Assembly: GCA_902773365.1 (NCBI GenBank)
Contig: CACYEG010000033.1
Span: 1-32,337 of the forward strand
Length of the DNA stretch: 32,337 bases
Source: an uncultured Erysipelotrichaceae bacterium
GTDB taxonomy: Bacteria; Bacillota_I; Bacilli_A; RF39; UBA660
Direction: 5' to 3'
A program made the translations under genes and the position numbers. Within the stretch, counting starts at the first letter, position 1. Every line of letters begins with the position of its first letter. The notes beneath the pieces are model-generated. The model was not told the origin of the DNA. It saw nothing but the letters and a program-made list of their open reading frames with translations, and did no database searches. Shown here one piece after another: positions 1,337-31,766 of the stretch.

Positions 1337-3244
1337 TCAATTTGACAACAGTAGCTTTACAGTTCCATCTTTCTTAATATATTGGTTTGCACTAGGACTC
1401 ATGTAAATTACGGTATCTCCAGAACCGGAATATTCGACTTTAAAATCTTTTAAAATTTTTCTAGCTTCTTTTTTATCTAATCCCAATACATCAGGTAATT
1501 TTAGATATTCAGTTTCATACCATTCGTATTGTTTTGGCATACCTGTTTCATCTGGTTTAATGTTAAGTACTTCTATTGCACTTTTAAATACATTTTTTGC
1601 AATTGGCGCAGATACTGTGCCACCATATTGTGTAATACCTTTTGGATTGTTAACTGCGACATATACGATGATTTCTGGATCGTTCGCTGGCATGAAACCT
1701 ATAAATGAAACGATATAATTACCTGATAAGTATCTACCATTTTCAACTTTTTGTGCAGTTCCAGTTTTACCACCGACACGATAATTTTCAATATATGCAT
1801 TGTGCCCGGTACCATTTGCCACAACACTTTCTAAAGCAAAACGGACTAGTTCTGATGTTTTACTACTTATGACTTGTTTTACGACTTGTTTTTTATTTTC
1901 TAAAATTGTAGTATTTGTTTCAGGTTCACTAATGACTTTTACTATATAGGGCTTTAATAGTTCTCCGCCATTTATTGCTGCACTTACTGCTCGCGCTTGT
2001 TGTATTGGAGTTACACTTATTCCTTGGCCAAAAGATGTTGTAGCGGTTTCTACTGGCCCCATTTTATCTAACTTGAATAGAATACCAGATCCTTCTCCAT
2101 TTAAATCGATTCCCGTTTTATTACCGTATCCATAATTTCTTACGTAGTTATATAATGTGTTCGTGCCAAGTCTTTGACCTAAAACAACAAAACCTGGGTT
2201 GCATGAGTTTTCCACTACTTCCAAGAAGTTTTCACTTCCATGTCCTCCATGTTTCCAACATTTAATTCTGGCGTTTTCCACTTGTATAGAACCAGAATCA
2301 TAATATCTATCTTCAAAAAGATTTACCTTGTTTTCTTCTATAGCAGCACTCAAAGTAAGAATCTTAAACGTACTACCCGGTTCGTACGTTTTCCATATAG
2401 CTAAGTTTCTGTTGATTGCTTCTATGGAATAATTTTTATAATTATTTGGATCGAAATCCGGACGATTAGCAAGACCTAATATTTCCCCAGTTTTTGGATT
2501 CATTGCAATAATAAGTGCATCTTCTGGAGAATACATACTCATAACATTATCTAATTCTTTCTCAATAGATTTCTGTATATCTAAGTCGATGGTAAGCGTT
2601 ATGTTCATACCGCTTTGCGGTGGCTCATATTTTTCTTCTAACTTTAACCTGTGTCCTTTTCCATCCGAATAATACTTAATCGCTCCATTTACTCCAGTTA
2701 AGTATTTATCATAATATAACTCTAAACCGCTAAGTCCTTGGTTATCGATACCGACATAGCCTAAAACATGTGATAATAAATTATTATATGGATAATATCT
2801 TTTGGATTCTTTTAATAGATAAACTCCATCATAATTTAGTTTGCTGATTTTTTCTGCAACTTCGAAAGAAAGTTGTCTACCCTCTGGGTGAACTCTTTCT
2901 ATTGCAATTTTTTTTGTGACGTGCGCTAGCATTTTTTCATAGTCGACGTTTAGAATATCTGAAATATCTTTGGCTATTTTTTCTTTATCTTTTATTTGAT
3001 TAGGAATAAATACCAAGCTTGTAGTAGTTGCATTTGTTGCAATTACTTTGCCGTTTCTATCATATATTTCTCCACGATCAGCGCTGATGGGTAAGTTTCT
3101 ACTCCATAAGTCATTAGCAAGAGTATTTAATTTATCATAACTAATTACTTCGATATAAAATACTTTACCGATAACAAGTATCATCATCAGTACTACTACT
3201 AAAAATATTATTCTGACTCGTATATTTATTGTATTTTTGAACAT
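1337..3244 (-). CDS. class B penicillin-binding protein (FtsI/PBP2B/SpoVD family) with one C-terminal PASTA domain
   Basis: N-terminal TM anchor and PBP dimerisation region. Transpeptidase motifs STFK (GSTFKILT), SxN (NSCNPG) and KTGTA (GGKTGTAQK). PASTA-like tail (LPDVLGLDKKEARKILKD...). I prefer the ATG at 3244 (MFKNT...) because GGAGG at 3250-3254 sits inside the longer ORF-track start. Confidence 0.92.
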   Translation of the reverse strand: MFKNTINIRVRIIFLVVVLMMILVIGKVFYIEVISYDKLNTLANDLWSRNLPISADRGEIYDRNGKVIATNATTTSLVFIPNQIKDKEKIAKDISDILNVDYEKMLAHVTKKIAIERVHPEGRQLSFEVAEKISKLNYDGVYLLKESKRYYPYNNLLSHVLGYVGIDNQGLSGLELYYDKYLTGVNGAIKYYSDGKGHRLKLEEKYEPPQSGMNITLTIDLDIQKSIEKELDNVMSMYSPEDALIIAMNPKTGEILGLANRPDFDPNNYKNYSIEAINRNLAIWKTYEPGSTFKILTLSAAIEENKVNLFEDRYYDSGSIQVENARIKCWKHGGHGSENFLEVVENSCNPGFVVLGQRLGTNTLYNYVRNYGYGNKTGIDLNGEGSGILFKLDKMGPVETATTSFGQGISVTPIQQARAVSAAINGGELLKPYIVKVISEPETNTTILENKKQVVKQVISSKTSELVRFALESVVANGTGHNAYIENYRVGGKTGTAQKVENGRYLSGNYIVSFIGFMPANDPEIIVYVAVNNPKGITQYGGTVSAPIAKNVFKSAIEVLNIKPDETGMPKQYEWYETEYLKLPDVLGLDKKEARKILKDFKVEYSGSGDTVIYMSPSANQYIKKDGTVKLLLSN

Positions 3245-3430
3245 AAGTTCCTCCATTAAATTATATTATTTTAATGAATATAAATACATAAAAATAGTTA
3301 TATGTTTTCTAAGTATATTTAATAATCAATTTTCTGGTTATAGTAATATTAAATTAGATAAAACTTGTTAATTAGCATTATTATTTTTTTTGAATAACGA
3401 TGTAGTTTCACCTTTTGTATAAATCCAATA

Positions 3431-3460
3431 AAAAAAATAATCTTGTTTACACAAGATTAT
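3431..3460 (-). terminator. rho-independent terminator ending the four-gene SipW-type module
   Basis: Perfect 10-bp inverted repeat (ataatcttgt 3437-3446 / acaagattat 3451-3460) with a 4-nt loop. It overlaps the stop codon (3457-3459) and is followed on the minus RNA by a U7 tract (3431-3437). The stem is AU-rich with only 2 GC pairs, so it is weak. Confidence 0.45.
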
Positions 3461-5976
3461 TCATACATTGCAACAAAGTGCATGCTATATATTATTTCTA
3501 CTTGATCTCCTGGCATATATATTTTATCATCACCATTGTTGTACCATCCTTTAAATGTCTTACCTTCTACTTCTTTTGGTTCTGGTAAAGTATAGAATGA
3601 ATTGGCTTCATAATATTCAGCATTTTTATTTTCGCTTGTAGATACCATCCACATAAAACGTCCATTACTGTTCATTGGAGGTATGACAATTTTTCTATTT
3701 AGGACTCTATCAAATAGACTAATATCCAATAGTCCTTTATGTTGTAAAATCATAGCTTCTCTCATTCTAAAGCCTTTAAAGATATGTTCAGGGAATACAT
3801 GCGACCAATCTTCGTAGTGGAATACATCGCCTTTAGCAAGAAATTCTTCTCTTTCACTAGTCCATTTTAAATTATCATCGAATGTGAACATGTTAGATAC
3901 AACAAGTATTGCATCAGTCGTAAGTATATTGTCTGCAATTACATTGTGATAGAAAGTCGATGATACATGATAATATTTAACTGGACTGTGGATTTCTTCA
4001 ATCTTTTCAACAGTTACAATTTCTATTTCATTATTGTCATTAACCTTAATAACTCTCGTACCAACATGGAAGTTTTCTCTATCCTTTACAGACACATACC
4101 TTTTAGCATCCGCACTGTAAACACCATGAGTACCAACAGTCTTTAAAACTGATCCATCTGAAAAAGTATTAATCTGGTATTCATCTATATCTCCAGCTTG
4201 TTCTATCCATATAGGATATTCTTCTATTACTTGCCCGGTCTGATGACTTATAGCGATTAGCAAATCTTCATACCGTATATCTTCTATTTTTTTACTCGTG
4301 CCATCTGCAAGTCTTATCATAGTTCCTTCAACTAAGCACGTTTGATTATTTGCGGTAGTCGAAGTTGAGACGGAAATATTAGATTCTATATTCCCTGCAT
4401 ATATAGTAAAATTTGCAGTTGTTGTTGATCCACTTTGTAGTCTAAAGAAATACTCTGTACCATTCGTATAAGTTCCACTTGTAGGACTAACTGTTATGGT
4501 ACCATCTAGCTTGTAGTTATCTGCAGTTACAGTTATCGTAGATGAAAATTCTGCTTTATAGTAAATCTTTGTAGAAGTGACATTGTTCCCGTTGACAACA
4601 AGTGCTACGTTGTTGTTATTAGAAGTCAAAGTTAAGTCGTATTCGTATACTAAAGATATAGCGCTTGAAGAAACACAATAAGGATTACTACTGTTACAAT
4701 ATTCTAATCCACTATTTTGAGCGTGATCTTTTCCGTATACTTTGACAAAAAATGTTTTGTTGGCATTCTGTAAAGAAGATTTATTTTCTGTTAAGAATGC
4801 ATTATCTAGAATAAATTCATAACCTGTCGTTGGGGTATTTCCGCTTAATTCGACTGTTTTAAGAGGAGTCGATGTATTAGCACTATCAAATAATGCAATG
4901 TAGTAGTTATCGACATCTGTTCCACCAGAATCGAGTCTTTCCCAGGATACTTTAGTCTTTAATGAATTATTTGATGTATCATATTGTATTTTTTCAAAGG
5001 AAACATTGCCAATCGATACTGGAGTTGTATCTTGTACTTGCGATATTGGCACTGCAATATTAAGTGTACCAATACTCGTTGGATTCATGCCAGATGCTTC
5101 TACGATAATCGATGTAGTTGTTGTATCTTCTGTAAATATTGCACCATCAGATTTTTTTATGCAAACATTATATTGTTCAACATTACTCTCTGGGTCATTT
5201 TCATCTGGAGCTTGAATAGTAAAGCTACTTAGGGCATTCTCATTAGAGTCAACAAGTTGAAAATTAGAGTTACCTGATGTTACAGTAAAAGTCTTGGCGC
5301 TTTTATATGTATTTAATATTTCAAAGTCAAAACAGTCTAGATTCTGATTTTTCAAATCGACACTACTCGTTAATAAAGTTCCATAGAATTGTCCTGTTTC
5401 ATAGACTTCACTACCGACTGTAGCTTCTCCTCCGACTCCAATGGTAGTATTAGGCCGCGACGATTCTACCCTTATTTCTAGCTCGACCGCGAATTTTCTT
5501 ATTTCATCGCTTGCAATTACATCACCTATAGCTAAATCTGAGTTAGTAGTAGTTACAAAAGTATGTGTTATAAAAGCCCCGGCTTCATCATCGCTTGCAC
5601 CTGATATTGTTACTTCTGGAGCTATGTTAAACCCAGTAAATGTATAATCATCGATACTTCCATTATCGAGAGTAACTAAATATGTTGCATAATATGTAAC
5701 TTGTTCAGAAGAAACTGTAAAAGAATAATCTAATGCTATATTGTCATTATTATCTAAATAAAGGCCTTGTCCAGAATTAGCAGGTAACGTATTTCTCCCT
5801 GAGCTATCCACGCTGATATCGGTTATTTTGAGTTTACCAACCTTTCTTGTTGTTATTCCACCACCTATAGTAAGTATCTTATCACTAAATGCAAATCCAA
5901 AAGTCATAAGTACTATTATCAAGCAAAAAAAGAAGGTCAATAATATAAATATTTTTTTGTCGTTATTCTTTTTCAT
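3457..5976 (-). CDS. large secreted multidomain protein: SipW-type signal peptide, TasA-like N-domain, Ig/FN3-like beta region, Hint autoprocessing domain, unknown C-terminal module with a Listeria-Bacteroides-type repeat
   Basis: ATG at 5976 (MKKNNDKKIFILL...) lies 1 nt after the upstream stop, with an AAGGA Shine-Dalgarno. The signal peptide ends in TFGFAFSDKILTIGGGITT, nearly identical to the 187-aa protein at 8222..8785, and the following ~140 aa look paralogous to it. The middle is Thr/Ser/Asn-rich beta sequence with an FN3-like stretch (VSWERLDSGGTDVDNYYIALFD...YEF). The Hint domain starts at CLVEGTMIRLADGT. The C-terminus reads GKTFKGWYNNGDDKIYMPGDQVEI...VAMYE. There is no LPXTG, SLH, LysM or C-terminal TM. 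Confidence 0.85.
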   Translation of the reverse strand: MKKNNDKKIFILLTFFFCLIIVLMTFGFAFSDKILTIGGGITTRKVGKLKITDISVDSSGRNTLPANSGQGLYLDNNDNIALDYSFTVSSEQVTYYATYLVTLDNGSIDDYTFTGFNIAPEVTISGASDDEAGAFITHTFVTTTNSDLAIGDVIASDEIRKFAVELEIRVESSRPNTTIGVGGEATVGSEVYETGQFYGTLLTSSVDLKNQNLDCFDFEILNTYKSAKTFTVTSGNSNFQLVDSNENALSSFTIQAPDENDPESNVEQYNVCIKKSDGAIFTEDTTTTSIIVEASGMNPTSIGTLNIAVPISQVQDTTPVSIGNVSFEKIQYDTSNNSLKTKVSWERLDSGGTDVDNYYIALFDSANTSTPLKTVELSGNTPTTGYEFILDNAFLTENKSSLQNANKTFFVKVYGKDHAQNSGLEYCNSSNPYCVSSSAISLVYEYDLTLTSNNNNVALVVNGNNVTSTKIYYKAEFSSTITVTADNYKLDGTITVSPTSGTYTNGTEYFFRLQSGSTTTANFTIYAGNIESNISVSTSTTANNQTCLVEGTMIRLADGTSKKIEDIRYEDLLIAISHQTGQVIEEYPIWIEQAGDIDEYQINTFSDGSVLKTVGTHGVYSADAKRYVSVKDRENFHVGTRVIKVNDNNEIEIVTVEKIEEIHSPVKYYHVSSTFYHNVIADNILTTDAILVVSNMFTFDDNLKWTSEREEFLAKGDVFHYEDWSHVFPEHIFKGFRMREAMILQHKGLLDISLFDRVLNRKIVIPPMNSNGRFMWMVSTSENKNAEYYEANSFYTLPEPKEVEGKTFKGWYNNGDDKIYMPGDQVEIIYSMHFVAMYE
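3913..4338 (-). other. Hint (Hedgehog/intein-like) domain-coding segment inside the large secreted protein
   Basis: ORF-track residues 562-703. Block A is C-L-V-E-G-T-M-I (Cys codon 4338..4336). Block B is T-x-x-H (LKTVGTHGVY). A block F-like stretch reads VKYYHVSSTFYHNVIADN. The segment ends ILTTD-A, without a terminal His-Asn or a Cys/Ser/Thr +1 residue. Confidence 0.7.
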
Positions 5977-5977
5977 A

Positions 5978-7012
5978 TTATTTATCCTTCGATAGCGTAT
6001 ACCGCCAAGCAATCTTATCATTGATCATCAAAAATGTTGCTTTATCCTTTTCATCGCAAAAATTAATCGGTAATCTAAGTTCACTATGTGCATCCAACAG
6101 CTCATTAAAATTTTTAACTTCTATAATCTGTAAGTCCTCAATAGATGGCATTTTTTTAACAGTAATAATTATCGAATCATAGGTTTTTAATATTTTTCTT
6201 AACTTTTTAATATATTCTAGTTGACTCCTAGCTCTCATAATAAACACTATTACGACAAATATATATGATAGTATTGCAACACCTATAAGTGTAAAGCCAC
6301 CTATTCTAAATAATTTGTATTTTGAATCCTGTAAATAGTATTTATCTGAATTTAATGTTTCTTCTTTCTTTGGGCAATTAATCTCAATTGGCACTTCTAT
6401 AGTAGATTTAGTAAGAGGGATAGTTAAACTTACCTCTTCTTCCTTAATAAAGTCATCTCCACCAAATTCACTATTGATGACATTTTTAACTGTCATATAT
6501 ATCTTTAGAGATCCATTCATAGATAGAGAATATTGTTTTTTAAATTCCATTAGAATATCATTATAGTTTTGATAATCAACTTTGATGTTCTCTTTAATAT
6601 TAACCTCATTTGTATCGCTAAAATTTATTTTCTTTTCGGGTATTAATACATATTCTTTTTGCCAATAGTTATTGTCTTTATCATTTTGTAATTCTGCACT
6701 AATAACTCCTTTGATAGAATAACTATACTCTCCGCTTTTTATATTATCAAAAACAATATTATAGCTTAAATCTACATCGATATTGTCAATTAGACTTGTA
6801 ATATAGACCTTTCCTTTTTCTAGATATGGTGTTTCAAAGAACTTATTTTCCTTGAGGTAAACTTTATAATCGACGTCGCTAGTTTCTTTATAATTAATAG
6901 ATTCAACAAATGTATTTTTATAGCTCTTTTTTAAAAGAACAGCTCCAACTGGCAAAAAGATAATATAGCAAAACAGTAATATTACTGCTATGGCTTTTAT
7001 CTTTTTCTTCAT
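5978..7012 (-). CDS. bitopic membrane protein of unknown function: N-terminal TM, ~230-aa extracytoplasmic domain, C-terminal TM, ~90-aa cytoplasmic tail (architecture reminiscent of DUF5305, unverified)
   Basis: ATG at 7012 (MKKKIKAIAVILLFCYIIFLPVGAVLL) with GGAGG at 7020-7024 (7-nt spacer), overlapping the end of the upstream peptidase gene. Second TM is FRIGGFTLIGVAILSYIFVVIVFIM. The stop lies 1 nt before the next ATG, indicating translational coupling. Confidence 0.8.
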   Translation of the reverse strand: MKKKIKAIAVILLFCYIIFLPVGAVLLKKSYKNTFVESINYKETSDVDYKVYLKENKFFETPYLEKGKVYITSLIDNIDVDLSYNIVFDNIKSGEYSYSIKGVISAELQNDKDNNYWQKEYVLIPEKKINFSDTNEVNIKENIKVDYQNYNDILMEFKKQYSLSMNGSLKIYMTVKNVINSEFGGDDFIKEEEVSLTIPLTKSTIEVPIEINCPKKEETLNSDKYYLQDSKYKLFRIGGFTLIGVAILSYIFVVIVFIMRARSQLEYIKKLRKILKTYDSIIITVKKMPSIEDLQIIEVKNFNELLDAHSELRLPINFCDEKDKATFLMINDKIAWRYTLSKDK

Positions 7013-7016
7013 AATT

Positions 7017-8162
7017 TTACCTCCTTTCAAAAAGTTCATGAATCCAAACCGTCGGATAACCGGCATTATTTAAGGCATATTTAACTACACCATAAACATT
7101 TTCATTAGTTATATCCAATGCATCAATGGTTTCGTTGTTATCGCCTTTAGTAATAAATGTATAGACTCCTTTATCGTACTTAATTTTAACCACCCTATGA
7201 GTAATGATACCAGTACCAATATCAAAAGCAAGAATGTCACCTTCATTAACTTCACTTGCAAGTACTTTCTCAATTATTACAGCGTCTCCCCTTTTGTATG
7301 TTGGTTTCATACTATTTGAGACAATTGCAATGATGTGATATTTAAAGAACCCGCTTGTTAAGGCTGCAAGTAAAGATACAAACGCAAGCATTATAGCTAA
7401 AACTATTCTTCTTAAAGTTTTTTTTGCCATACGATGATAAGCATCCTTATATTTAATTTCTTTTCTCACTTGGTAATATATAACGAATGGTAAAATCAAA
7501 CTGAATATCGCACTCAAATAATCTCCTATTGCTGGTAAAAATGGCATAAAATAGGCATATAATTCGATTACTAACCTATAAATTAGAGATGGTGCAAAGC
7601 TTACATTATAAGTTACATATGAGTACATAGACTCATTTGCAATAATAGGAACAATAATAGTTGACGTAATGACAAATATGTTTTTGGCATTACTTAAGTC
7701 TTTACCACTAATTCCCATTATTATGTTTAACGCTATATATTCAATAGTCAATATTATTATTTCTTTTTTACTTGTACAGTTTTTTAAAATGATATATCTA
7801 AAAATTTCCATACATGTAAAAATGATTACATATGGATATATATTTTTTAAAATAACTAGGATATTGTTATCAAAGTGACTATACCCAAATCCTATAAAGA
7901 AACCCATCAAGTATGTACTGACAAAATACAAAAGCAAAATTGTTACTACAATCTTGATAGTAATCGGCTTTAAGTAATTTTTATCCCTCGAAAACCCAAA
8001 GGTGATATATCCAAATAGTGTAATTAAAAGCCAAAAAATCGTATTTATTATTAGAGAGTACTCCCTATACGATTTGATTGCTATTGCCTTAAACATAATA
8101 ATAAAAATTAATAGTATTATTTCAAAAATGTATACTCTCTTTATATTCTTTTTCATAATCAT
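7017..8162 (-). CDS. ER/archaeal-type (S26B, SipW-like) signal peptidase I fused to an N-terminal ~8-TM domain of unknown function
   Basis: The C-terminal ~135 aa (about 7017-7421) hold a TM anchor and then IVSNSMKPTYKRGD (Ser box, Ser codon 7313..7311), GIITHRVV (His box) and TKGDNN. This is the Ser/His pattern of SipW/Sec11-type peptidases, not the Ser/Lys pattern of LepB. Upstream are ~250 aa of about 8 hydrophobic helices. The start is uncertain (ATG at 8162 or 8156). The ORF-track start at 8204 lies inside a hairpin, and no good SD is visible. Confidence 0.8.
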   Translation of the reverse strand: MIMKKNIKRVYIFEIILLIFIIMFKAIAIKSYREYSLIINTIFWLLITLFGYITFGFSRDKNYLKPITIKIVVTILLLYFVSTYLMGFFIGFGYSHFDNNILVILKNIYPYVIIFTCMEIFRYIILKNCTSKKEIIILTIEYIALNIIMGISGKDLSNAKNIFVITSTIIVPIIANESMYSYVTYNVSFAPSLIYRLVIELYAYFMPFLPAIGDYLSAIFSLILPFVIYYQVRKEIKYKDAYHRMAKKTLRRIVLAIMLAFVSLLAALTSGFFKYHIIAIVSNSMKPTYKRGDAVIIEKVLASEVNEGDILAFDIGTGIITHRVVKIKYDKGVYTFITKGDNNETIDALDITNENVYGVVKYALNNAGYPTVWIHELFERR

Positions 8163-8173
8163 CACTAGTAATT

Positions 8174-8203
8174 TGTGTAATGCTGCATAAGCAGCATTAC
8201 ACA
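8174..8203 (-). promoter_or_regulatory. perfect 13-bp stem / 4-nt loop hairpin between the TasA-like gene and the peptidase gene
   Basis: tgtgtaatgctgc (8174-8186), ataa, gcagcattacaca (8191-8203). In the sense (minus) direction it is not followed by a U-tract. The U-tract is on the plus-strand side only. Confidence 0.6.
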
Positions 8204-8221
8204 TATTTTTAGTTAGTAGGA

Positions 8222-8785
8222 TTAAGCTTGTGCTTGTCCATATGTTAAAGTTACAGTTAATGTCTGAGTTTGATCTGTCTCTGGTAATGAACTTTCATTT
8301 GCTGGTTCAACATAAGAAACTTTTACATGAATAGTTTCAGTGCCTTCTGGTGCTAATGCTGAGTTACCAGTTATAGTATTTGTTGCAGCTGTGTAGTTAG
8401 TACTATTATATGTAACAACATGATCTAAATAATCAATATTAGAAGTGCTCGTTAATGCGATAGTTTTAAGTATAGCATTAAAATCACCGGCATTGATTAC
8501 ATCTGCATCAAATTCATAATAGTCACCAGGTTTATTTAAAGTGACAGTATATGAAATTGAAGTAGATCCATCTGCTGGTACACTTGGAGCTGTTGTAACA
8601 GTTGCGCCATTATTATTGATATTCTTAACTTCTTTGAAGTGAACATCCCATTTAGTAGCTTTTGCAGTAACTCCTCCTGTAATTGTTAAGTTAACATCAG
8701 AGAACGCAAAACCTATCGACATAGCAACTACTGCAACTAATAAAATAGCAATAACAGCAACATAAAAAGTGTTCTTCTTTTCCAT
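8222..8785 (-). CDS. small secreted beta-rich protein, TasA/camelysin-like candidate major subunit with SipW-type signal peptide
   Basis: ATG at 8785 (MEKKNTFYVAVIAILLVAVVAMSIGFAFSDVNLTITGGVTA...) with GGAGG at 8793-8797 (7-nt spacer). The ORF-track start is a TTG two codons upstream. FAFSD resembles the (F/W)A-x-F-(S/N)-D end of the TasA/CalY signal peptides. LNKPGDYYEFDADVINAGDFNAIL resembles TasA's NLKPGDKLTKDFQFENNGSLAIKEV. The functional call is by motif only. Confidence 0.75.
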   Translation of the reverse strand: MEKKNTFYVAVIAILLVAVVAMSIGFAFSDVNLTITGGVTAKATKWDVHFKEVKNINNNGATVTTAPSVPADGSTSISYTVTLNKPGDYYEFDADVINAGDFNAILKTIALTSTSNIDYLDHVVTYNSTNYTAATNTITGNSALAPEGTETIHVKVSYVEPANESSLPETDQTQTLTVTLTYGQAQA

Positions 8786-8808
8786 ATTCAATCCTCCTTA
8801 TTATCTTT

Positions 8809-8836
8809 AGTATAACACAAAATAATTCAAATACAA
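8809..8836 (-). promoter_or_regulatory. sigma-A-type promoter with extended -10 for the TasA-like/SipW-type module
   Basis: The minus strand reads TTGTAT, 16 nt, (TGT)TATACT. The -35 is at 8831-8836, the -10 at 8809-8814, and TG is at the extended -10 position. Confidence 0.45.
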
Positions 8837-15942: not shown

Positions 15943-17406
15943 CTAATTTTTTCTCCAGTATGCTAAAATCTTTGGTATGATTTTAATTTCTCTATTCAAT
16001 TTTTCTACTAAGTCTTCTTTATCAAACAAATTTAAGGCATTTAAGAATAGTGGATTATCTAATGCAAGAAATTCCGGATAAGTCTTTTCTATTTCAGAAA
16101 CTGTTGTAACTCCCAATTCAGTTAAAACTTCTTTGTTGGCATTTTTGTTATTTTCAAATGAGCCAATTTCATTGTCTGTCTTTTTCAATAATTCGATTAG
16201 TCCGCTTTTTGCATCTACTTTCATAAATTCGTTATTATAAACATTTATGAGTTTATCAATATCAACAGCTGCAAGCTCGTCCAAGATATAGTAGATAAAG
16301 TCAATAGTAAATCCCATACCATTTCCTTCTTCATCTGTCGTAATGATCTTGATTAACTCATCTAGCTCCTTAGCATCCTTTTTGTAATATATTTCACTTT
16401 GGTTTAAAGTTAACTCTAATGGAAGCTCATGTTTTTTTAATACCTCAATGTTTTCTTTTACTCGTTCGGTGTTTTGTTCAAAAGAAGCTCTTGTTTCATC
16501 GCTAAAGTCTTCATATTTTATTCCGTTACTTTCGAATATTTTTTTTAATGGTGATTCTTCTAATTCTTTTTTTTCGTCGTTTTGTAGCGTTTCACTAGAA
16601 ATGTTATCTTCAACTGCTTCTTCAGTAACATGAGATACTTCTATACCACTAGCTTCTTCTTTAAGCGGTTCAACCTCTTCGCTTACTTCATTTACTTTTT
16701 CACTTGGCAATTCTACTTCTTCTAAATCATCTTTAGTATCGTAATCTAATTCTATTTCCTTTAAGTCAAAATCTATTTTAGGATAATCAGTATTTTCTTC
16801 TTCTGAAATAACTGGTTCTTCTACTGATGTATCACTTTCATCTTCTAATATTTTTGCGATATCTTCTTCAAATTTTTCTTTAGTAGCTGTTATTAAATCT
16901 AATAAATCTTCGGTCTTCTTTATATATGCTTCTTGATGATCCTTGAATATTATTAGCTCATTTAGTTCTTTTTCAGCGTCTTCTTTATTAAATTTGTTAA
17001 TTTCGCGTTTTTCCTGTGTGTTTAATAGTTTTGTCTCTATCTTAGCAATTTTTTCTGTCTTGCTAGAAATCTCACCATCGATATCTTCTTCTTCCATTCT
17101 TTGTACTTCACTGTCAGTATATGAAATATCTTTTTTCTTTAAAGATAATTCTTCGATATCGCCTTTCGTTTTATCTCTAAGACGCCCTAGCTCATCTATC
17201 TTCAAATCGCAATCACGTATTGTTGATGAATACGATTCTATTTCCTTCTTTTTATCGTCAATATCCTTTTCTGCTTTTTGAAGAGGTTCATATCTATCGT
17301 TAAAATCATTGTAAAATTTATCGAATAAAGTGGCAACTGAATCAACTAGTGTCTTTACGCTGTCTATTCTTTCATAGTCACTTGCCTCGTATTTTATTCT
17401 CATCAT
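15943..17406 (-). CDS. acidic coiled-coil protein of unknown function (N-terminal coiled coil, Glu/Asp-rich linker, C-terminal helical domain)
   Basis: 487-aa ORF with no TM or signal peptide. Heptad-like K/E-rich N-terminal ~190 aa, then a very acidic low-complexity stretch (EDESDTSVEEPVISEEENTD...EEVEPLKEE), then a ~200-aa helical C-terminal domain. No family recognised. Confidence 0.75.
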   Translation of the reverse strand: MMRIKYEASDYERIDSVKTLVDSVATLFDKFYNDFNDRYEPLQKAEKDIDDKKKEIESYSSTIRDCDLKIDELGRLRDKTKGDIEELSLKKKDISYTDSEVQRMEEEDIDGEISSKTEKIAKIETKLLNTQEKREINKFNKEDAEKELNELIIFKDHQEAYIKKTEDLLDLITATKEKFEEDIAKILEDESDTSVEEPVISEEENTDYPKIDFDLKEIELDYDTKDDLEEVELPSEKVNEVSEEVEPLKEEASGIEVSHVTEEAVEDNISSETLQNDEKKELEESPLKKIFESNGIKYEDFSDETRASFEQNTERVKENIEVLKKHELPLELTLNQSEIYYKKDAKELDELIKIITTDEEGNGMGFTIDFIYYILDELAAVDIDKLINVYNNEFMKVDAKSGLIELLKKTDNEIGSFENNKNANKEVLTELGVTTVSEIEKTYPEFLALDNPLFLNALNLFDKEDLVEKLNREIKIIPKILAYWRKN

Positions 17407-19724: not shown

Positions 19725-20513
19725 ATGGTAAATTTTTTTATACATTTAAACCCTGTAATTCAAGCATTAATTGCTACGATAGTGACATATTTGTTCACTG
19801 TCCTTGGAAGTGCATTAGTATTTCCTTTTAAGAATGTTAATCGCAATATAATGGACGGGATGCTCGGCATTGCAAGTGGAGTAATGATTGCTGCAAGCTT
19901 TTTTAGTCTTTTATCGCCTGCAATAGAAAGTGCAAATACTTTAGGGCTTACGCCTTGGATTATAGTATCGATTGGATTCGCTTGTGGAGGAGTATTACTA
20001 TTTTTAACTGATAAAATATCTTCGAATTTTTTAGATAAATATCCTGATGCTTCCAAAAAAAAGCGAACCTTTATGCTAATGTTCTCAATTACTATTCATA
20101 ACATACCAGAAGGTTTAGTTGTCGGTCTTGCTTTTGGTTCAATTCCTTATAACAATACAACTTTAGTAAGTGCTTGCCTATTAGCCCTCGGTATAGGTAT
20201 ACAAAATTTTCCTGAAGGAAGTGCTTTATCTCTTCCGTTTAGAAGAGATGGTATGAGGCCCTTTAAAGCATTCTTTTTGGGGCAAATTAGCGGAATAGTA
20301 GAGCCTATCGCAGGTGTATTAGGAGCTCTTTTAGTACTTAAGGTACAATCTATTTTACCATTTATGCTGTCTTTTGCCGCTGGTGCTATGATCTATGTCG
20401 TAGTAGAAGAATTAATACCAGAAAGTCAAGCAAACAAAAGAAAAGACCTAATGGCCTTATTTACTATATTGGGTTTTATTATAATGATGATACTAGATGT
20501 CGCCTTATCTTAG
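19725..20513 (+). CDS. ZIP-family divalent metal (zinc) transporter, ZupT/GufA-like
   Basis: Eight TM helices with paired HNIPEG / QNFPEG metal-site motifs. I prefer the ATG at 19725 with AGGTG 6 nt upstream. The ORF-track start is a GTG at 19716. Confidence 0.9.
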   Translation: MVNFFIHLNPVIQALIATIVTYLFTVLGSALVFPFKNVNRNIMDGMLGIASGVMIAASFFSLLSPAIESANTLGLTPWIIVSIGFACGGVLLFLTDKISSNFLDKYPDASKKKRTFMLMFSITIHNIPEGLVVGLAFGSIPYNNTTLVSACLLALGIGIQNFPEGSALSLPFRRDGMRPFKAFFLGQISGIVEPIAGVLGALLVLKVQSILPFMLSFAAGAMIYVVVEELIPESQANKRKDLMALFTILGFIIMMILDVALS

Positions 20514-21161
20514 ATAATTAGAGAATATAAGAAAAAACCATAGCAATACAACTAATATCACGATTATACTGATGACATAATTTGCATTTGCAAGTACATG
20601 TCCTTTGTTATCTTCATATATTGCAACTTTAGGAGCTTCCTTTTTAGGTGGAAGTTTTTTTTCTGTATTATCCTTGTTGATATCCTCTATATCAAATTCG
20701 CAAGTACGTACAAATTCGCCGTTTTCGTTCATCGATGAATCGAGGAAAAATTGTTTATTGACATTCAGTGTAGTAGTAGAACAATAAGTGCTTTCTGTAT
20801 CGTAACTTTTGATTATGTAGCCACTTTCTGTTTCTATAAACGGCATGATTGTGAACTTGATATTTCCAGCAATGAAACTGAAACCATAGTCTTCATTCCA
20901 ATTATATTTTAAAGAATCCCACCCCTGAATATACAAAAAATTACTCCGAATAATTTGTCTAATATTCGAGATTACTTCCTTTTTACAAATCAATACGATG
21001 TCTTTGAAGTGTTCTTCCTTTTCACCACTCCATAGTGCGTTTGCATATTTTTTACAAAAGTACACATTATTAAACACTACAGGCATCTTCTTTAAAATTT
21101 CCTTCGCTGCTAATAATTCTGAAGTAGTGAAATCTAAATAATACGTATACTTAGTTATCAT
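20505..21161 (-). CDS. tail-anchored membrane protein of unknown function
   Basis: 218-aa ORF with a ~185-aa soluble N-terminal part and a single C-terminal TM (VISIIVILVVLLWFFLIFS). No recognisable motifs. Its 3' end overlaps the convergent ZIP gene by 9 nt. Confidence 0.6.
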   Translation of the reverse strand: MITKYTYYLDFTTSELLAAKEILKKMPVVFNNVYFCKKYANALWSGEKEEHFKDIVLICKKEVISNIRQIIRSNFLYIQGWDSLKYNWNEDYGFSFIAGNIKFTIMPFIETESGYIIKSYDTESTYCSTTTLNVNKQFFLDSSMNENGEFVRTCEFDIEDINKDNTEKKLPPKKEAPKVAIYEDNKGHVLANANYVISIIVILVVLLWFFLIFSNYLR

Positions 21162-22361: not shown

Positions 22362-22970
22362 CTAATAATTAAATTCATAAACATATGAGTATTCACCAGA
22401 TGTAATTTCTATTTTAAAAATGCTTTCTGCATCAGTGTAGATTATATATGAAGTTCCATCAATGTTATATGTGTATATCGTATTATTTTCTTGACGATTT
22501 ATTATCGCAGAAGACGAATTAAATGTAGCAAAAAGATCTTTAAACATCAAATTCTTTTTTTCGATGTTTTGATACAAGTCATCATATTCTTCTTCTTTAT
22601 CTTTAGTAACTTTAAAAACTTTATCTTCGACAATTTTATATTTGATTATTTCATCATTATTTTCTCTATAACCGGTATCAATGCCATCTATTATTTTACC
22701 ATCAAAGATTACACTACCATTACCACTAATTGTATATTTATATGAATGATTTGCTTTTAAAAGTTTTTCTTGTTTATCAAGAAAAGAAATACTTTGTGTC
22801 ATATTTTTTTCATTAGTTTCGGTATTTTTAATAACTTCATTATTATTTGTAAAACTTCCAGAGAGTGCTAAAAATGACACTGTAAAAATAAGAAAAGCAA
22901 AATAAAGTGATAATTTTATTTTAGTCGGCCCTTTTTCAGTTTTCATTATTTCTTGTAATTTATTTTTCAT
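22362..22970 (-). CDS. membrane-anchored extracytoplasmic protein of unknown function
   Basis: 202 aa with an N-terminal TM/signal anchor (LSLYFAFLIFTVSFLALSG) followed by a beta-rich domain. The start overlaps the fmt stop by 11 nt, with GGAGTG 7 nt upstream. Confidence 0.65.
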   Translation of the reverse strand: MKNKLQEIMKTEKGPTKIKLSLYFAFLIFTVSFLALSGSFTNNNEVIKNTETNEKNMTQSISFLDKQEKLLKANHSYKYTISGNGSVIFDGKIIDGIDTGYRENNDEIIKYKIVEDKVFKVTKDKEEEYDDLYQNIEKKNLMFKDLFATFNSSSAIINRQENNTIYTYNIDGTSYIIYTDAESIFKIEITSGEYSYVYEFNY

Positions 22971-23959: not shown

Positions 23960-25399
23960 TTATTCTAGTAAACTTTTTAAACTTGTTTTAACACTCAATA
24001 TTGAAGAGTCATTCTGTTTCATAACATATAATTTTGTTCTGCCAGTTGAATATGTTACATCAAATGAATCATACCCTAGTGCATTCGCATTAGTTACTTC
24101 CCAATTAACTGTATTATTCATTTGATATTTGGCTAATTTATAAATATCTTCAGTACTTATATTTGTTACAAAAGACTTCTCTAATGAGCCAATAATAGAA
24201 GAATAGTTAGTAATAATACTAGGTGATGTGATTTTATCGATAATTGCTTTTATAACAGCTTCTTGATTTTCTCCTCTAGATATATCTCCTTCAGGCAATC
24301 CTTTTCTAAATCTAGAAAAAGCTAGTGCAGCTTTACCATATAGCTTATTTTTACCTTTTCTAAAAGTATATCCGTCATAAGAAAACGCATACTTACTATC
24401 TACTTCAACACCTCCAATAGCGTCGATTAATTTTATTAAAGAAGAAAAATTAACTTTAATATAGTAAGCAATTTTTATGTCATATAGATCTTCTAATGTA
24501 TTAACTGACTCTTCAATTCCATAAATTCCTGCATGGGTAAGCTTGTCGTAAGCTCCCTTAGAATGAAGTTTTACATAATAATCTCGCGGTGTATTAACTA
24601 ATAAAATTTTATTAGTTTTTGGATTAACCGCTATGAGTATATTTACATCACTTCTACTTACCGTTCCAATGTTACCATATGTATCTATTCCGCTTATATA
24701 CATGACGAATGAATCTTTTGTAATGTCAGTAGTAGTTTTTTTAACTTTCTCTACTTCGCTAACTTCGATGGTTTTAATTACTTTATATTTTTGAATCATT
24801 TCATAATACTGTTCATTTAATATATTTTCTAGAGTACTTGTAATAAATATTGCATCTTCTTCTTTAGAAATTCCTGAATTTAATATTGTATCGATTTCAT
24901 CATAATAGGTTTCTTTTTTTAAGGCACCTTTAACCTCTTTTTTAAGTCCAGCTACAGCCTTAATTAAAGTTTTACTGTTATTGTTGAATATTCCAATTTT
25001 TTTATCTTTTAAATCTGATACTTTTCTAATTGGCGATTCTTTTAGTACATAGACATTATATATTTCCCTTTTTGTAATTGCATTAGATGCGCTCGTAATT
25101 AACGATTCTGTAAGATTAATGTTGTATAAAAAATATATTGGTATAATATTCAGCACTATTAGTATAAAAAACGCAATAAATCGAGTAAATCCTTTTTTAC
25201 TTTTTAATGCAAGTAGAAAGATAACTAATGCTACTACTACACAAGTTATACACAATATCATAAAGTATTCCTTTTTAAGTATATCCATTTTGTATATTTT
25301 ATAGACAAATATAAATAGTGAAACGAGTGTTATAAAAAAGAACAATAAGACTGCTCTTTTATACCCCTTTTTATTATTTTCCTTCTTTTTTTTTGCCAT
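23960..25399 (-). CDS. LytR-CpsA-Psr (LCP) family cell-wall glycopolymer ligase with 3 N-terminal TM helices and an extra extracytoplasmic domain
   Basis: LCP core motifs are VSRSDVNILIAVNP, NTPRDYYV and IDAIGGVEV. An additional ~130-aa domain lies between the TM region and the LCP core. AAGGTGA lies upstream of the ATG. Confidence 0.9.
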   Translation of the reverse strand: MAKKKKENNKKGYKRAVLLFFFITLVSLFIFVYKIYKMDILKKEYFMILCITCVVVALVIFLLALKSKKGFTRFIAFFILIVLNIIPIYFLYNINLTESLITSASNAITKREIYNVYVLKESPIRKVSDLKDKKIGIFNNNSKTLIKAVAGLKKEVKGALKKETYYDEIDTILNSGISKEEDAIFITSTLENILNEQYYEMIQKYKVIKTIEVSEVEKVKKTTTDITKDSFVMYISGIDTYGNIGTVSRSDVNILIAVNPKTNKILLVNTPRDYYVKLHSKGAYDKLTHAGIYGIEESVNTLEDLYDIKIAYYIKVNFSSLIKLIDAIGGVEVDSKYAFSYDGYTFRKGKNKLYGKAALAFSRFRKGLPEGDISRGENQEAVIKAIIDKITSPSIITNYSSIIGSLEKSFVTNISTEDIYKLAKYQMNNTVNWEVTNANALGYDSFDVTYSTGRTKLYVMKQNDSSILSVKTSLKSLLE

Positions 25400-28658: not shown

Positions 28659-29272
28659 AGTGGAATTACCTCCCATAAATTAAATATCGAAAGTATTATA
28701 AGAATTATAATTATTATAGTCAATATATTATAGACTATATCTTTTTGTAAAAATGATGGTAAGTGATGTTTGATTGCAGATAACCCAATATACAGAAAAT
28801 AGCCGCATATTCCACCAACACAGTTTAAAATAATATCATCGATATCGAAGCTTCTACCAATGAATAATTGTACTAACTCAATAGTTAAACTTGATATAAA
28901 AGTCGCAATCAGTGGTTTACTAACCTTTTTAGAATCTAGTACTAGACTTATAATGAAGCCAAATGGTATAAATATCAATATGTTACCTATGATATTCCAC
29001 ATAAAATGTTTACTTCCCCAAGTATATCTTAATATTTCTCTAAAAGGCATAAAGTTGTTACCGACACTTTGTACATCTGTATTAGTTACCATTCCAAATA
29101 AAAGTAAAATATATATTTGAAATAAAAGTGTAAAAAACTCTTTATATAGAACGAATTTTTCTTTTTTTTCTAAGATATACATAATTCTAATGGTTGTTAC
29201 TATAACCATGAATATAACTAACATAGGCCAAATACCATCTATTATGGTAAAAAATTCTTTAGGAAGTTCCAT
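28655..29272 (-). CDS. VanZ-like family membrane protein
   Basis: 205 aa with 5-6 TM helices and a VanZ-like pattern (FMPFREIL, NIIGNILIFIPFGF, ELVQLFIGRSFDIDDIILNCVGGICGY). Confidence 0.8.
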   Translation of the reverse strand: MELPKEFFTIIDGIWPMLVIFMVIVTTIRIMYILEKKEKFVLYKEFFTLLFQIYILLLFGMVTNTDVQSVGNNFMPFREILRYTWGSKHFMWNIIGNILIFIPFGFIISLVLDSKKVSKPLIATFISSLTIELVQLFIGRSFDIDDIILNCVGGICGYFLYIGLSAIKHHLPSFLQKDIVYNILTIIIIILIILSIFNLWEVIPL

Positions 29273-30410
29273 TTTCTTGCATCCTTTCGAGTGGTATTTC
29301 TCTTTCTACCCGTTCGCCGATAGGCTCTTTAATAGAATAAAAAATATCCATAACAATTATACTATCATACTCGACACTTTGCAAAACTTTTTCAAAAATT
29401 ATAGTTCCTTTATCTCCTATTTTTTCTTTTATCTTTTTTCTGGCTTGTTTTAATGCAACTTTCGTAAGTTCTTCGCTTGTATAATTTTGGGTTGCTTCTA
29501 CATATTCCTGCTCTAAAACTTTATAAATTTTGAATTCACCAATTTTTATTAATTTTCTCTTAATGATGTCATACTTTTTAAAATGGCTTTTAAATATAGT
29601 TTTTTCATTATCTTTATATCCTATAGAAAAATTTACTTTTTTATTGTCAGTATATCTTTTTATAGTATGTAAGCTTGGTATTTTTATATTGACAGTATAC
29701 CAAGTGTTTCCAAATATCTCTCCCTCAGCGCAGGTATATGCTTTTGTTTCTTCGTTAAATTTTATCTCTCCATTTATTAGTGTACTACCCTTTTTAACAA
29801 AATCGTTTATATCTACATTTGCTTGTCCTCTATAGATGGCGCTATTTAATATTACTGCATCTTTAGTGCTGATTATATCACAAAACTTACTTTCTTTTTT
29901 GGTTGAAACTTTTTCTCGTTTTTCTACTCGCACTGTATATTTCATTCCATCATCTATTATTTCTAACCATTCAATTTTATCCTTATTGTTATTTTTTATT
30001 TTAGTCTTTATATTTTGAATATCTTGAAAACTTTTTTTAATCATAAATTGATGAATTCCATTATTTTCTAACTCTTCATATAAAAGGTCCCTTATTTCTT
30101 TTTCGTTATGTAGTACATCTATTTCTAATATGACATGAGATAATAGAAACATCTCTATTATTGATATAATAATGCCTATTATAAAATACTTGCATCTTTT
30201 AATTCCATATAGATATCGCTTAATTCCTGAAAAGCTTAATATTTTAATATCAAATGGTATTTTTTCTATATCTTTGTTACTTATTGTATAAACATTACCC
30301 TTCGAAGTGGCTTTAATGTTATATATATTAATTTTTCTATTTAACAAAAAATTAATAACGTGCCTTGAATCATCTAGGATAAGTATGTCGACTTTATTCA
30401 TGGAATTCAT
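29259..30410 (-). CDS. yqfD: sporulation protein YqfD-like
   Basis: ~380 aa with a central TM (YFIIGIIISIIEMFLLSHVIL). Alignable by eye to B. subtilis YqfD, including the GE-x-GNTWY motif (GEIFGNTWYTV versus GETWY). It sits directly after a yqfC-like gene. The start is either 30410 or 30401. Confidence 0.8.
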   Translation of the reverse strand: MNSMNKVDILILDDSRHVINFLLNRKINIYNIKATSKGNVYTISNKDIEKIPFDIKILSFSGIKRYLYGIKRCKYFIIGIIISIIEMFLLSHVILEIDVLHNEKEIRDLLYEELENNGIHQFMIKKSFQDIQNIKTKIKNNNKDKIEWLEIIDDGMKYTVRVEKREKVSTKKESKFCDIISTKDAVILNSAIYRGQANVDINDFVKKGSTLINGEIKFNEETKAYTCAEGEIFGNTWYTVNIKIPSLHTIKRYTDNKKVNFSIGYKDNEKTIFKSHFKKYDIIKRKLIKIGEFKIYKVLEQEYVEATQNYTSEELTKVALKQARKKIKEKIGDKGTIIFEKVLQSVEYDSIIVMDIFYSIKEPIGERVEREIPLERMQENGTS

Positions 30411-30701: not shown

Positions 30702-31766
30702 TTACGCTTTAACTCTTGATTTAACTAATTGGTATATAAACCCTACACCATATAATAGGAAAAGAATTGTAATAAATGATCCAACATATGGAATCAAGTC
30801 TATTAACTTAATAACAACTACACTAATTAAAAGACTTATGTATGGGCTCATATTCTTCGAATATTTACTAATAAGTTTATTTATGACTATGTATGCAGCG
30901 ATTCCACTTGATATATAACAAATTATTGCGTAAAGCGAGATAACAATTAAACTAAGTGGCGCTAATATACCAGTACATAATGTAAATAAAGCAATTATAG
31001 GAATTGCGATTAACACAAATAATCCTTTTGCTATAGTTTTTAAACTTTCCTCTACTTTTAAAGGTTCTTTTTCCAATTTTGTTTTGAATTTTGGTAAAAC
31101 CGAAATAAGAATTGCCAAAACTACAAATAATGAAATAGAACTTTTAATGGCATTTAATATTCTTTGCCATAAAGATATTTTTTCGATATTGCTACTCTCT
31201 TTTTCAACAATTTTGCCTATAGTAGCTTCATTTTTACCTTCAATTACTGTATAATCAAAACATGTAATTTTACCTTCGATAGTTGTATTTTTATCGACTA
31301 ATACTTCATTTGCATTAGCGTAGACATTACCATTTATTGTAATTCCTCTAATATCTAAAGTATCACCGACAAAGCGAATGTTTCTAGCACCTGATGCGTT
31401 AATTTTCATATTACTTACAAATGCATAGATATCTCTGTTAATTTCTGCGTCGCTAGAAATATTTGCACTATTTCCAAGAACAACTAAGTCTTTTTCAATT
31501 TTCGATTCTATTGTTATAACATTACCTACGTATAAAGCATATGGAGCGCTTCCTTTAATATTAGCATTATTGGCAGCGATTATAGAAATCCCATCCACAT
31601 CTTCTTCACTAGTGACATTATTACCTGCTATAACTCGAGAGGAATCAACTGTCCCCTTCTCGTTTAAATCCTTATCAAATTTAAATACCCCTTTTGCCTG
31701 TACACCACTTATTACTAAAAAAGAGCAAATAAGTGTACACATAACCTTAACAATTATCTTCTTCAT
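30702..31766 (-). CDS. exported beta-helix-repeat protein with C-terminal multi-TM anchor (bactofilin/DUF4097-like repeats, unverified)
   Basis: Signal peptide MKKIIVKVMCTLICSFLVISGVQA. About 170 aa of degenerate short repeats rich in N/G/I/V follow (IAGNNVTS, IKGSAPYALYVGNVITIES, VVLGNSANISSDAEINRDIY, VGDTLDIRGITINGNVYANA). About 4 C-terminal TM helices close the protein. GGAGG lies upstream of the ATG. Confidence 0.7.
   Translation of the reverse strand: MKKIIVKVMCTLICSFLVISGVQAKGVFKFDKDLNEKGTVDSSRVIAGNNVTSEEDVDGISIIAANNANIKGSAPYALYVGNVITIESKIEKDLVVLGNSANISSDAEINRDIYAFVSNMKINASGARNIRFVGDTLDIRGITINGNVYANANEVLVDKNTTIEGKITCFDYTVIEGKNEATIGKIVEKESSNIEKISLWQRILNAIKSSISLFVVLAILISVLPKFKTKLEKEPLKVEESLKTIAKGLFVLIAIPIIALFTLCTGILAPLSLIVISLYAIICYISSGIAAYIVINKLISKYSKNMSPYISLLISVVVIKLIDLIPYVGSFITILFLLYGVGFIYQLVKSRVKA

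Follow-up and report, generated by a model that had tools for sequence, protein, structure and literature searches.

The stretch of DNA analysed here (hereafter the window) comprises the 32,337 nucleotides (nt) of contig CACYEG010000033.1 (assembly GCA_902773365.1, positions 1 to 32,337 of the forward strand) from an uncultured Erysipelotrichaceae bacterium. It carries a compact operon of four co-directional minus-strand genes (8785-3457), which we call g1 to g4 and examine as a candidate system for the export, processing and assembly of surface proteins. The first gene, g1 (8222-8785, minus strand), encodes 187 amino acids (aa) from an ATG at 8785, with the ribosome-binding site AAGGAGG lying 7 nt 5' of it. 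It is followed by g2 (7017-8156, minus strand; 379 aa), whose start, MKKNIKR, is supported by an alignment of homologues that begins at the same Met, and then by g3 (5978-7012, minus strand; 344 aa) and g4 (3457-5976, minus strand; 839 aa). The gaps between them measure 65 nt (g1-g2), 4 nt (g2-g3) and 1 nt (g3-g4). A first-pass annotation of this DNA had described four tightly packed minus-strand genes, with 1-7 nt separating the last three, and the open reading frames (ORFs) and gaps are indeed as it described them.

The same annotation had placed a terminator over the final stop codon and an extended -10 promoter ahead of g1. The terminator (3427-3462, minus strand) is a 12-bp stem followed by U8 that overlaps the UAA stop of g4; at -12.2 kcal/mol and z = -4.85, with 0 of 200 shuffles equally stable, it is therefore a credible intrinsic terminator. 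The promoter claim stood only in part. A promoter-like sequence can be read at 8809-8836 (minus strand; TTGTAT, a 16-nt spacer and the extended -10 element TGtTATACT), inside the 96-nt gap between the upstream ABC-transporter gene, which has its own weak terminator-like hairpin (8883-8862), and g1. A promoter scan did not flag this site, which fails the -35 criterion of the scan, and, because in this AT-rich DNA promoter-like sites are about as common as in shuffles (54 against 49), we regard the promoter as plausible only.

A second hairpin (8174-8203, minus strand) occupies the gap between g1 and g2. It is a perfect 13-bp stem without a U-tract (-22.9 kcal/mol, z = -8.0), and, of six other loci that we compared, four have a comparable hairpin between these genes (L001, 8571-8629; L006, 5727-5780; L007, 5934-5991; L017, 5804-5883), with none at this position in L003 or L013. 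Its sequence is near-identical in L007 and different in L001, L006 and L017, and the retention of the structure with differing sequences argues for a selected hairpin that raises expression of the gene ahead of it, which would encode the major subunit discussed below. We consider the element a probable mRNA stabiliser or attenuator that favours this subunit. The alternative ATG at 8204 of a longer g2 ORF sits within the stem.

The assignment of g2 as a signal peptidase rests on several lines of evidence. The protein matches TIGR02228, the endoplasmic reticulum (ER)/archaeal-type signal peptidase I of family S26B, with 82.9 bits (cutoff 51.85), over a catalytic domain at residues 252-371 (nt 7044-7403, minus strand), and its best relatives among Protein Data Bank (PDB) structures are human SEC11C and SEC11A (E = 4.5e-16). 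The peptidase motifs SNSMKPT, THRVV and KGDNN are present, and four homologues of 33-57% identity all retain S282 (in SNSMKP), H320 (in THRV) and D339 and D345 (in KGDNN..D); the catalytic residues are thus of the Ser/His type, not Ser/Lys, with a conserved Asp in addition. Against the SipW equivalog model NF046067, g2 reaches 52.6 bits, below the cutoff of 190. The peptidase domain lies behind a large membrane domain, as the first-pass annotation, which counted about 8 additional transmembrane (TM) helices, had recognised. A hydropathy scan gives 8 clear helices and a weaker one at about residues 187-205, and the N-terminus and the loop 228-250 are rich in Lys and Arg. Together, hydropathy and the positive-inside distribution imply about nine TM helices, eight of them before the usual anchor, with the N-terminus and the loop 228-250 predicted to be cytoplasmic and the catalytic domain predicted to face outward. 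We also considered a CPBP-type or other enzyme within the membrane domain and rejected it: the domain has a conserved E117-x-x-R120-Y121, D58-K59 and several Pro, and no conserved His.

The third product, g3, had been called a bitopic membrane protein, and two TM helices are found by hydropathy, at about residues 8-30 and 234-263, giving a topology of TM helix, extracellular domain, TM helix and a cytoplasmic tail of about 80 aa. It matches DUF5305 (PF17231; 63.1 bits, cutoff 29) over profile positions 1-217. DUF5305 has been proposed as an accessory subunit of the signal peptidase (SPase) (10.64898/2026.01.04.697558), and by analogy g3 is a putative accessory subunit of g2.

The small protein g1, previously described as secreted and beta-rich, can be divided into a signal/TM segment ending in GFA (residues 1-28), a putative donor strand, FSDVNLTITGG... 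(29-46), and a beta-sandwich (47-187). In the AlphaFold2 (AF2) model (mean pLDDT 86), a signal helix (3-28) and a confident beta-sandwich (48-184) flank a stretch of low confidence at about residues 29-46, with pLDDT <50 at 29-34. The junction between signal and strand, GFAFSD, reads SIGFAFSDVNLTITGG in g1 and recurs in g4, as the earlier reading had pointed out. No match to Peptidase_M73 (PF12389) was obtained for g1 or for 18 members of its family, even at E <= 10, and neither g1 nor the N-terminus of g4 matched the NCBIfam models for SipW-cognate or alternate-signal exported proteins (TIGR04087-04090) at E <= 0.1. PDB sequence searches with g1 and with the g1 profile returned matches at chance level only. 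When the full-length g1 model was used in Foldseek, the TasA fibre 8aur came second (E = 5e-3, TM 0.30-0.35); these scores are lowered by the signal helix and the poorly modelled strand, both of which were part of the model.

The family to which g1 belongs is very large. A word-indexed search gave only 25 relatives, whereas an exhaustive profile search reached 7,502 clusters (at 50% identity) with a threshold of E <= 1e-3, of which 1,477 remain at E <= 1e-30. Members share a basic N-terminus, a hydrophobic helix, the pattern [SG][IV]G[YF]A-x-L-S-x-x-L-x-I-x-G-T and a WD[VI]HF motif, and their sources call all of them 'hypothetical protein' or leave them unnamed. About one third of the top 150 family matches are stand-alone proteins of about 185 aa, and in the others, which are longer, the domain forms an N-terminal module; ten long members were scanned, six of which had C-terminal matches (including DUF285/LRR, ALK_LTK_GRD and NAGPA) and four had none. 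One distant member, P0038, comes near the Peptidase_M73 threshold (20.2 bits, cutoff 22.5). This protein has three tandem copies of the g1-type domain.

The family could be connected by profile comparison with AbpX, the subunit of a Pyrodictium abyssi fibre (PDB 9SJ2/9RHP) that forms a chaperone-free donor-strand polymer and belongs to the TasA superfamily (bioRxiv 10.64898/2026.01.04.697558). The AbpX sequence was taken from the supplement of that paper. A search for its homologues gave only 5 close Pyrodictium relatives, and, because relatives were so few, the AbpX profile was thin; two AbpX-like proteins from an archaeal locus described below (L019) were then added. The alignment by hhalign of 167 g1-family sequences with the AbpX relatives gave a probability of 94.9% (E = 4.5e-8), rising with the two archaeal proteins to 96.5% (E = 9.8e-10) over 167 collinear columns, which reach from the signal peptide as far as the last strand. 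The mature parts alone, stripped of the signal peptide, gave 68% (E = 4.8e-5), and a reversed-sequence control gave E = 0.24. Like AbpX, g1 falls in a size class of about 160-190 aa and has a long signal, an amphipathic stretch near the N-terminus that would serve as donor strand, a jelly-roll/beta-sandwich core and an acidic mature part. Its pI of 4.38 and D+E content of 10.6% differ from the values of about 4.0 and about 15% in AbpX homologues. In putative mature g1, V4, L6, I8 and V12 alternate along the strand, and L6, I8 and V12 align with L6, L8 and I12 of AbpX. The residues F-S-D have the right spacing for an aromatic-2/acidic-4 signature, and they take positions 2 and 4 only if cleavage occurs after GF; cleavage after GFA, which both the -3/-1 rule and the alignment of the family favour, places them at positions 1 and 3. 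From these comparisons we conclude that g1 is best classed as a remote AbpX-like member of the TasA superfamily, and not as TasA/camelysin in the Pfam sense.

The second secreted protein, g4, has the same signal end as g1 (TFGFAFSDKILTIGGG). Its N-terminal 28 columns, covering the signal end and the strand that follows, match the g1 profile (E = 3.9e-6), and its first beta domain aligns weakly but collinearly to the g1 family (E = 5.8e-4). In the AF2 model (pLDDT 74), a signal helix leads into a disordered stretch (24-46), which is followed by four beta domains (49-526). The rest consists of a Hint domain, a region of helices and, at the C-terminus, one more beta domain. Orthologues of g4 occupy the fourth position in L001, L006, L007 and L008.

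The Hint domain, which the first-pass annotation had named as part of this multidomain protein, covers residues 547-688 (nt 3913-4338, minus strand), is of the BIL/Hedgehog-like kind and begins with Cys547 at position 1. Foldseek gave E = 2e-8 to 1e-5 with target-normalised TM scores of 0.72-0.86, the matches including BIL2 (6y75, 0.76), a C. thermocellum BIL (2lwy, 0.83), a RecA intein (0.86), Hedgehog (6tyy, 0.74) and a DnaB intein, so that at the level of the predicted fold the assignment is firm. By sequence, g4 remains below the cutoffs of the Pfam Hint families (14.7 against 29.7), with weak matches that are all anchored at C547; its homologue P0037 passes the cutoff at 30.6, and PDB searches with g4 and the g4 profile returned a single weak intein match (8w20, E = 0.01). 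In 12 sequences, with identities as low as 20%, C547 and H617 never vary and T613 hardly varies; N678 is also invariant, and E592 is invariant in the eight closest sequences. Block B is spaced T-x-x-x-H, not TxxH. The domain ends in ...ILTTD followed by Ala (in the distant relatives P0032-34, ...LTTN followed by Gly), and it therefore lacks the C-terminal His-Asn and +1 nucleophile of canonical inteins and type A BIL domains.

With Thr-Asp/Ala in place of His-Asn and a nucleophile, the domain resembles the type B BIL or Hog domains, which cleave without splicing (PMC4031507), and the fold and the conserved residues suggest autoprocessing. In common with BIL and Hedgehog proteins it has the Hint fold, Cys at position 1, a conserved Thr near position 67, a conserved His near position 71 and a place in a secreted protein, and, by sequence offset, E592 stands at position 46, where Hedgehog has its general base D46. 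Downstream of the domain, where Hedgehog has its sterol-recognition region, g4 has about 80 residues (689-766, nt 3679-3912, minus strand) that are predicted to be helical (pLDDT <50), in which D723 does not vary and F712, R737 and E740 hardly do, stand-alone relatives P0032-34 included. These relatives terminate just past the helical region. The C-terminal beta domain of g4 (774-839, nt 3460-3657, minus strand; pLDDT 75-88) resembles a Listeria-Bacteroides repeat (Flg_new at E = 0.0084, which does not reach the curated cutoff, and the repeat of internalin B, 2y5p, at E = 0.11). Hint-bearing fourth genes are confined to the subclade nearest the window. One of the relatives, P0032 (L005 4674-7583; GCA_045535655.1), is a protein of 969 aa with a TIG domain, a different N-terminus and a C-terminal Hint domain with helical region; no peptidase or DUF5305 gene lies near it in L005, and the occurrence of Hint and helical region outside any module marks the pair as a mobile module.

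A synteny scan of species-representative genomes with the g2 alignment as query gave 53 loci, among which the full-length polytopic peptidase was found at 14 bacterial loci and at one locus from the Desulfurococcales. At all 14 bacterial loci, 1-4 g1-family genes precede the peptidase and DUF5305 follows it, directly downstream in 13 and after one intervening small family gene in the remaining one (L015). Metagenomic loci reached through g1 homologues (63% and 36% identity) and a g4 homologue have the same arrangement with differing flanks. The gene order is above chance, since the same arrangement recurs in many independent loci, and the co-localisation that the first-pass annotation had expected is thus observed. 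The nearest genome, a metagenome-assembled genome (MAG) labelled 'uncultured Tenericutes' (L007), has g1-g4 at 80-87% identity behind the same upstream ABC transporter.

Differences between loci are also informative. L060 (12700-20912) has five tandem small-subunit paralogues upstream of the peptidase; in L060 and in L011/L012 (3408-8885), where the tandem paralogues number four or five, more family members lie past DUF5305. Such arrays suggest that a fibre system may draw on several subunits that can replace one another. The fourth gene of L003 encodes a clear g1-like domain fused to DUF6273, which points to the fourth position as that of a variable minor or tip subunit. The archaeal locus L019 (Desulfurococcales MAG, 3320-6658) has two AbpX-like genes (AbpX HMM E about 1e-9) followed by a 409-aa polytopic peptidase that is homologous to g2 over the membrane domain (g2 HMM E = 1e-30), and this pairing ties the g2-type peptidase to AbpX-type loci; the match of the g3 profile to the membrane protein that follows the peptidase is not significant (E = 0.029). 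Two complete modules (L010, L013) lie on contigs binned as 'Muribaculaceae' (Bacteroidota). The other full-length bacterial matches all come from Bacillota-type MAGs, so these two possibly reflect mis-binning or transfer. Gene calls for the same region differ between L003, which has two genes (527 and 484 aa) at 1927-5201, and L004, which has one gene of 1,092 aa at 1923-5201, probably through a frameshift or an assembly difference.

Taking these results together, we think that the module is probably a self-contained operon for a chaperone-free donor-strand fibre of the AbpX/TasA-superfamily type. Both g1 and g4 would be exported by Sec, and in each the signal anchor at the N-terminus would have G-F-A as its last residues. 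The catalytic domain of g2, tethered to its membrane domain of about nine TM helices, would then cleave at or beside GFA/FSD with the help of the accessory protein g3. Cleavage would free the amphipathic strand FSDVNLTITGG, which would enter the open beta-sandwich groove of an adjacent g1 and so build a g1 polymer, as the AbpX homology and the poorly modelled N-terminal stretch of the g1 model suggest. Since g4 shares its signal end and donor strand with g1, it would join the same fibre as a minor subunit, most likely filling the empty distal groove, as proposed for TapA and for the Tafi/AbpX tip proteins, and thereby displaying its stalk of four beta domains. Judged from its fold and conserved residues, the Hint domain would probably form a thioester at Thr546-Cys547 and cleave there, separating a fibre-bound N-terminal part of about 520 residues from a C-terminal part made up of the Hint domain, the helical region and the beta repeat. 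The hairpin after g1 would raise the ratio of g1 to the other products.

How such a fibre would be held at the cell is a matter for speculation. As the first-pass annotation had remarked, neither secreted protein has a recognisable wall anchor: in g1 and g4 we found no LPXTG-like motif and no SLH or LysM match. Retention might perhaps be achieved by the uncleaved signal anchor of the newest subunit, as proposed for BsaA of C. perfringens. A further idea, quite unlikely in our estimate, is that the Hint domain and the helical region form a bacterial Hedgehog/Hog-like unit, in which the Thr546-Cys547 thioester would be resolved by a specific nucleophile and not by water. Candidate nucleophiles in such a scheme, which carries the same low probability, would be a lipid of the membrane, an amine in the cell wall or a group borne on the surface of another cell or of the host. 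The minor subunit could in that event, again with little probability, become covalently attached without a sortase, as an anchor or a covalent adhesin; such attachment, if real, would explain a locus without the LPXTG/SLH anchors that are seen in other bacterial AbpX-type loci.

Several observations weigh against the fibre interpretation. There is no Pfam or NCBIfam match for g1, even at E <= 10 over 18 family members, the Peptidase_M73 and SipW-cognate signal families included, and Foldseek gives weak support for a TasA-like fold, with AbpX outside the top 50. Identity between g1 and AbpX is only 17-20%, and few calcium ligands are kept: of the four in-protomer ligands of AbpX, D18 alone is matched, by the Asp of WDVHF, and D46, D48 and E52 have no g1 counterpart in the profile alignment. 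The donor-strand signature fits g1 only with cleavage after GF, and the wider family, which mostly reads A-L-S-T here, has the consensus IGYA-xLSxxLNINGT...WDVHF without the aromatic/acidic signature of AbpX. As to g4, the likeness of its domain 1 to g1 is weak (29% probability), and its Hint domain has neither the canonical TxxH spacing nor the terminal His-Asn.

Some of these points lend weight to the main rival explanation, which we nevertheless hold to be unlikely, namely that the locus is devoted to export and processing and makes no fibre. The g1-type domain would on this account be a common N-terminal handle, a monomeric module associated with the wall or membrane, and the polytopic peptidase and DUF5305 would merely mature or release the proteins that bear it. 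About half of the top 150 family matches are indeed N-terminal modules on proteins with unrelated, adhesin-type C-termini (DUF285/LRR, ALK_LTK_GRD, NAGPA, DUF6273), the structural likeness of g1 to TasA is weak, and no anchor was found. A handle of this kind does not account well, however, for the arrays of 1-5 tandem genes that encode stand-alone subunits of about 185 aa and lie directly upstream of the peptidase, a pattern typical of major and minor pilins, nor for the homology of the family to AbpX, a solved donor-strand polymer, and the poorly modelled amphipathic N-terminal strand would have no obvious role in a monomer.

We regard as very unlikely a second alternative, in which g4 is the payload of a polymorphic-toxin-like or effector-release system, its Hint domain freeing the C-terminal 150 residues as a toxin or signal in the manner of PT-HINT, and g1 is an accessory. 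Hint domains of secreted bacterial proteins do often release C-terminal modules, and stand-alone proteins outside any module likewise contain the Hint and post-Hint unit (P0032-34, L005). However, g4 has no match to PT-HINT or toxin families, no immunity-like small gene lies downstream, ahead of the terminator, and the post-Hint part consists of a conserved helical region and a common surface repeat, not of a variable toxin tip; moreover, the Hint gene is limited to one subclade, whereas the conserved core is g1, g2 and g3. Finally, it is most improbable that the module is a strict orthologue of tapA-sipW-tasA or of C. perfringens sipW-bsaABC, with a TasA/camelysin subunit and SipW: GFAFSD resembles the TasA signal end (...WA/AFND) and g1 and TasA both have a KPGD...N.G motif, but there is no Peptidase_M73 match, the SipW equivalog score is 52.6 bits against 190, the peptidase is polytopic, DUF5305 is present, the gene order is another and the hhalign alignment to TasA spans 20 columns. 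This alignment, made against a single TasA sequence, recovered only the KPGD...N.G motif and is not relied on.

The reading of the module as a fibre operon can also be set beside the systems already described. For abpX loci, ten TM helices are stated for the associated SPase I, and such loci are said commonly to include genes for minor subunits, for tip proteins that vary in structure and for a DUF5305 protein (10.64898/2026.01.04.697558). The present locus is alike in its TIGR02228 peptidase with many TM helices (about nine here), its DUF5305 protein and its extra tip or minor subunit. Bacterial abpX loci often add SLH or LPXTG anchors and regulators (10.64898/2026.01.04.697558), whereas no SLH/LPXTG anchor, sortase or regulator genes adjoin this operon, and its putative tip protein g4 differs in bearing a Hint domain. 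In the haloarchaeal Tat-fimbriae (Tafi, tafA-G), which assemble by donor strands, TafD is genetically needed for the processing of TafA, and TafG is a DUF5305 protein (PMC11821415, PMC12337348). A dedicated signal peptidase, a DUF5305 protein and minor (tip or adapter) subunits that share their N-terminal region are common to both systems; unlike Tafi, the module has Sec-type and not Tat signals, a bacterial host and no TafB-like regulator, and TafD has 4 TM helices and two extracellular domains against about nine TM helices in g2. With B. subtilis tapA-sipW-tasA and C. perfringens sipW-bsaA-bsaB-bsaC the module has in common a major subunit, a dedicated ER-type peptidase, an accessory or minor secreted protein, the lack of LPXTG on the subunits and, as predicted for it here, donor-strand assembly; BsaA oligomers are membrane-anchored (PMC9674648, PMC7395162, PMC11580942). 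It differs from these operons in that g1 is not Peptidase_M73 and the gene order is not the same, in that SipW is small and without a polytopic domain, and in that they have neither DUF5305 nor Hint.

These comparisons modify the first-pass annotation in two respects. It had likened the logic of the locus to that of a TasA system, and this likeness survives in the profile homology to AbpX and in the second place, albeit weak, of 8aur in Foldseek; it does not extend to the families, since g1 is not Peptidase_M73 and g2 is not a SipW equivalog. With the family assignments corrected from TasA/SipW to AbpX-type, the sequence comparisons leave its interpretation supported. It had also held several parts to lie outside described systems. 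The polytopic peptidase and its DUF5305 partner have in fact been described (10.64898/2026.01.04.697558; PMC11821415), and for the Hint-bearing second substrate we found no description in connection with TasA/AbpX-type fibres. Bacterial loci of the AbpX/Tafi-type kit have been described by bioinformatics, and we found none that is experimentally characterised.

The remainder of the window is ordinary chromosome of a walled Bacillota, with genes for an MraY-family protein (glycosyl transferase 4), FtsA, FtsZ and Lon. It also encodes YqfD of sporulation stage IV (29259-30410), a penicillin-binding protein with a PASTA domain (1337-3256) and an LCP-family protein (23960-25399), from which the organism is evidently walled, despite the 'Tenericutes' label of the nearest genome, and perhaps spore-forming. 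Four ORFs had no Pfam match at E <= 1e-5 (15943-17406, 487 aa; 20505-21161, 218 aa; 22362-22970, 202 aa; 30702-31766, 354 aa); they sit among housekeeping genes, the 487-aa one between ftsA and uvrC.

TasA-superfamily fibres with a polytopic ER-type peptidase and DUF5305 have been recognised as a cross-domain system since 2025-2026, in bacteria by bioinformatics only, and a compact four-gene version is present here in uncultured, small-genome gut-type Bacillota. The core of the operon is thus a recently described kit, and what sets it apart is a minor subunit with a Hint/Hog-like domain, together with the lack of any anchor. With its thousands of clusters, no Pfam or NCBIfam model and frequent occurrence on adhesin-like proteins, the g1 family points to a common surface-display route that annotation pipelines have missed. 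As a compact operon with its own terminator and promoter-like site, the module should be amenable to heterologous expression, and it could serve as a model for the role of a 9-TM domain and DUF5305 in a signal peptidase and for the coupling of cleavage to polymerisation. If the Hint domain is active, intein/Hedgehog-type autoprocessing would enter pilus biology.

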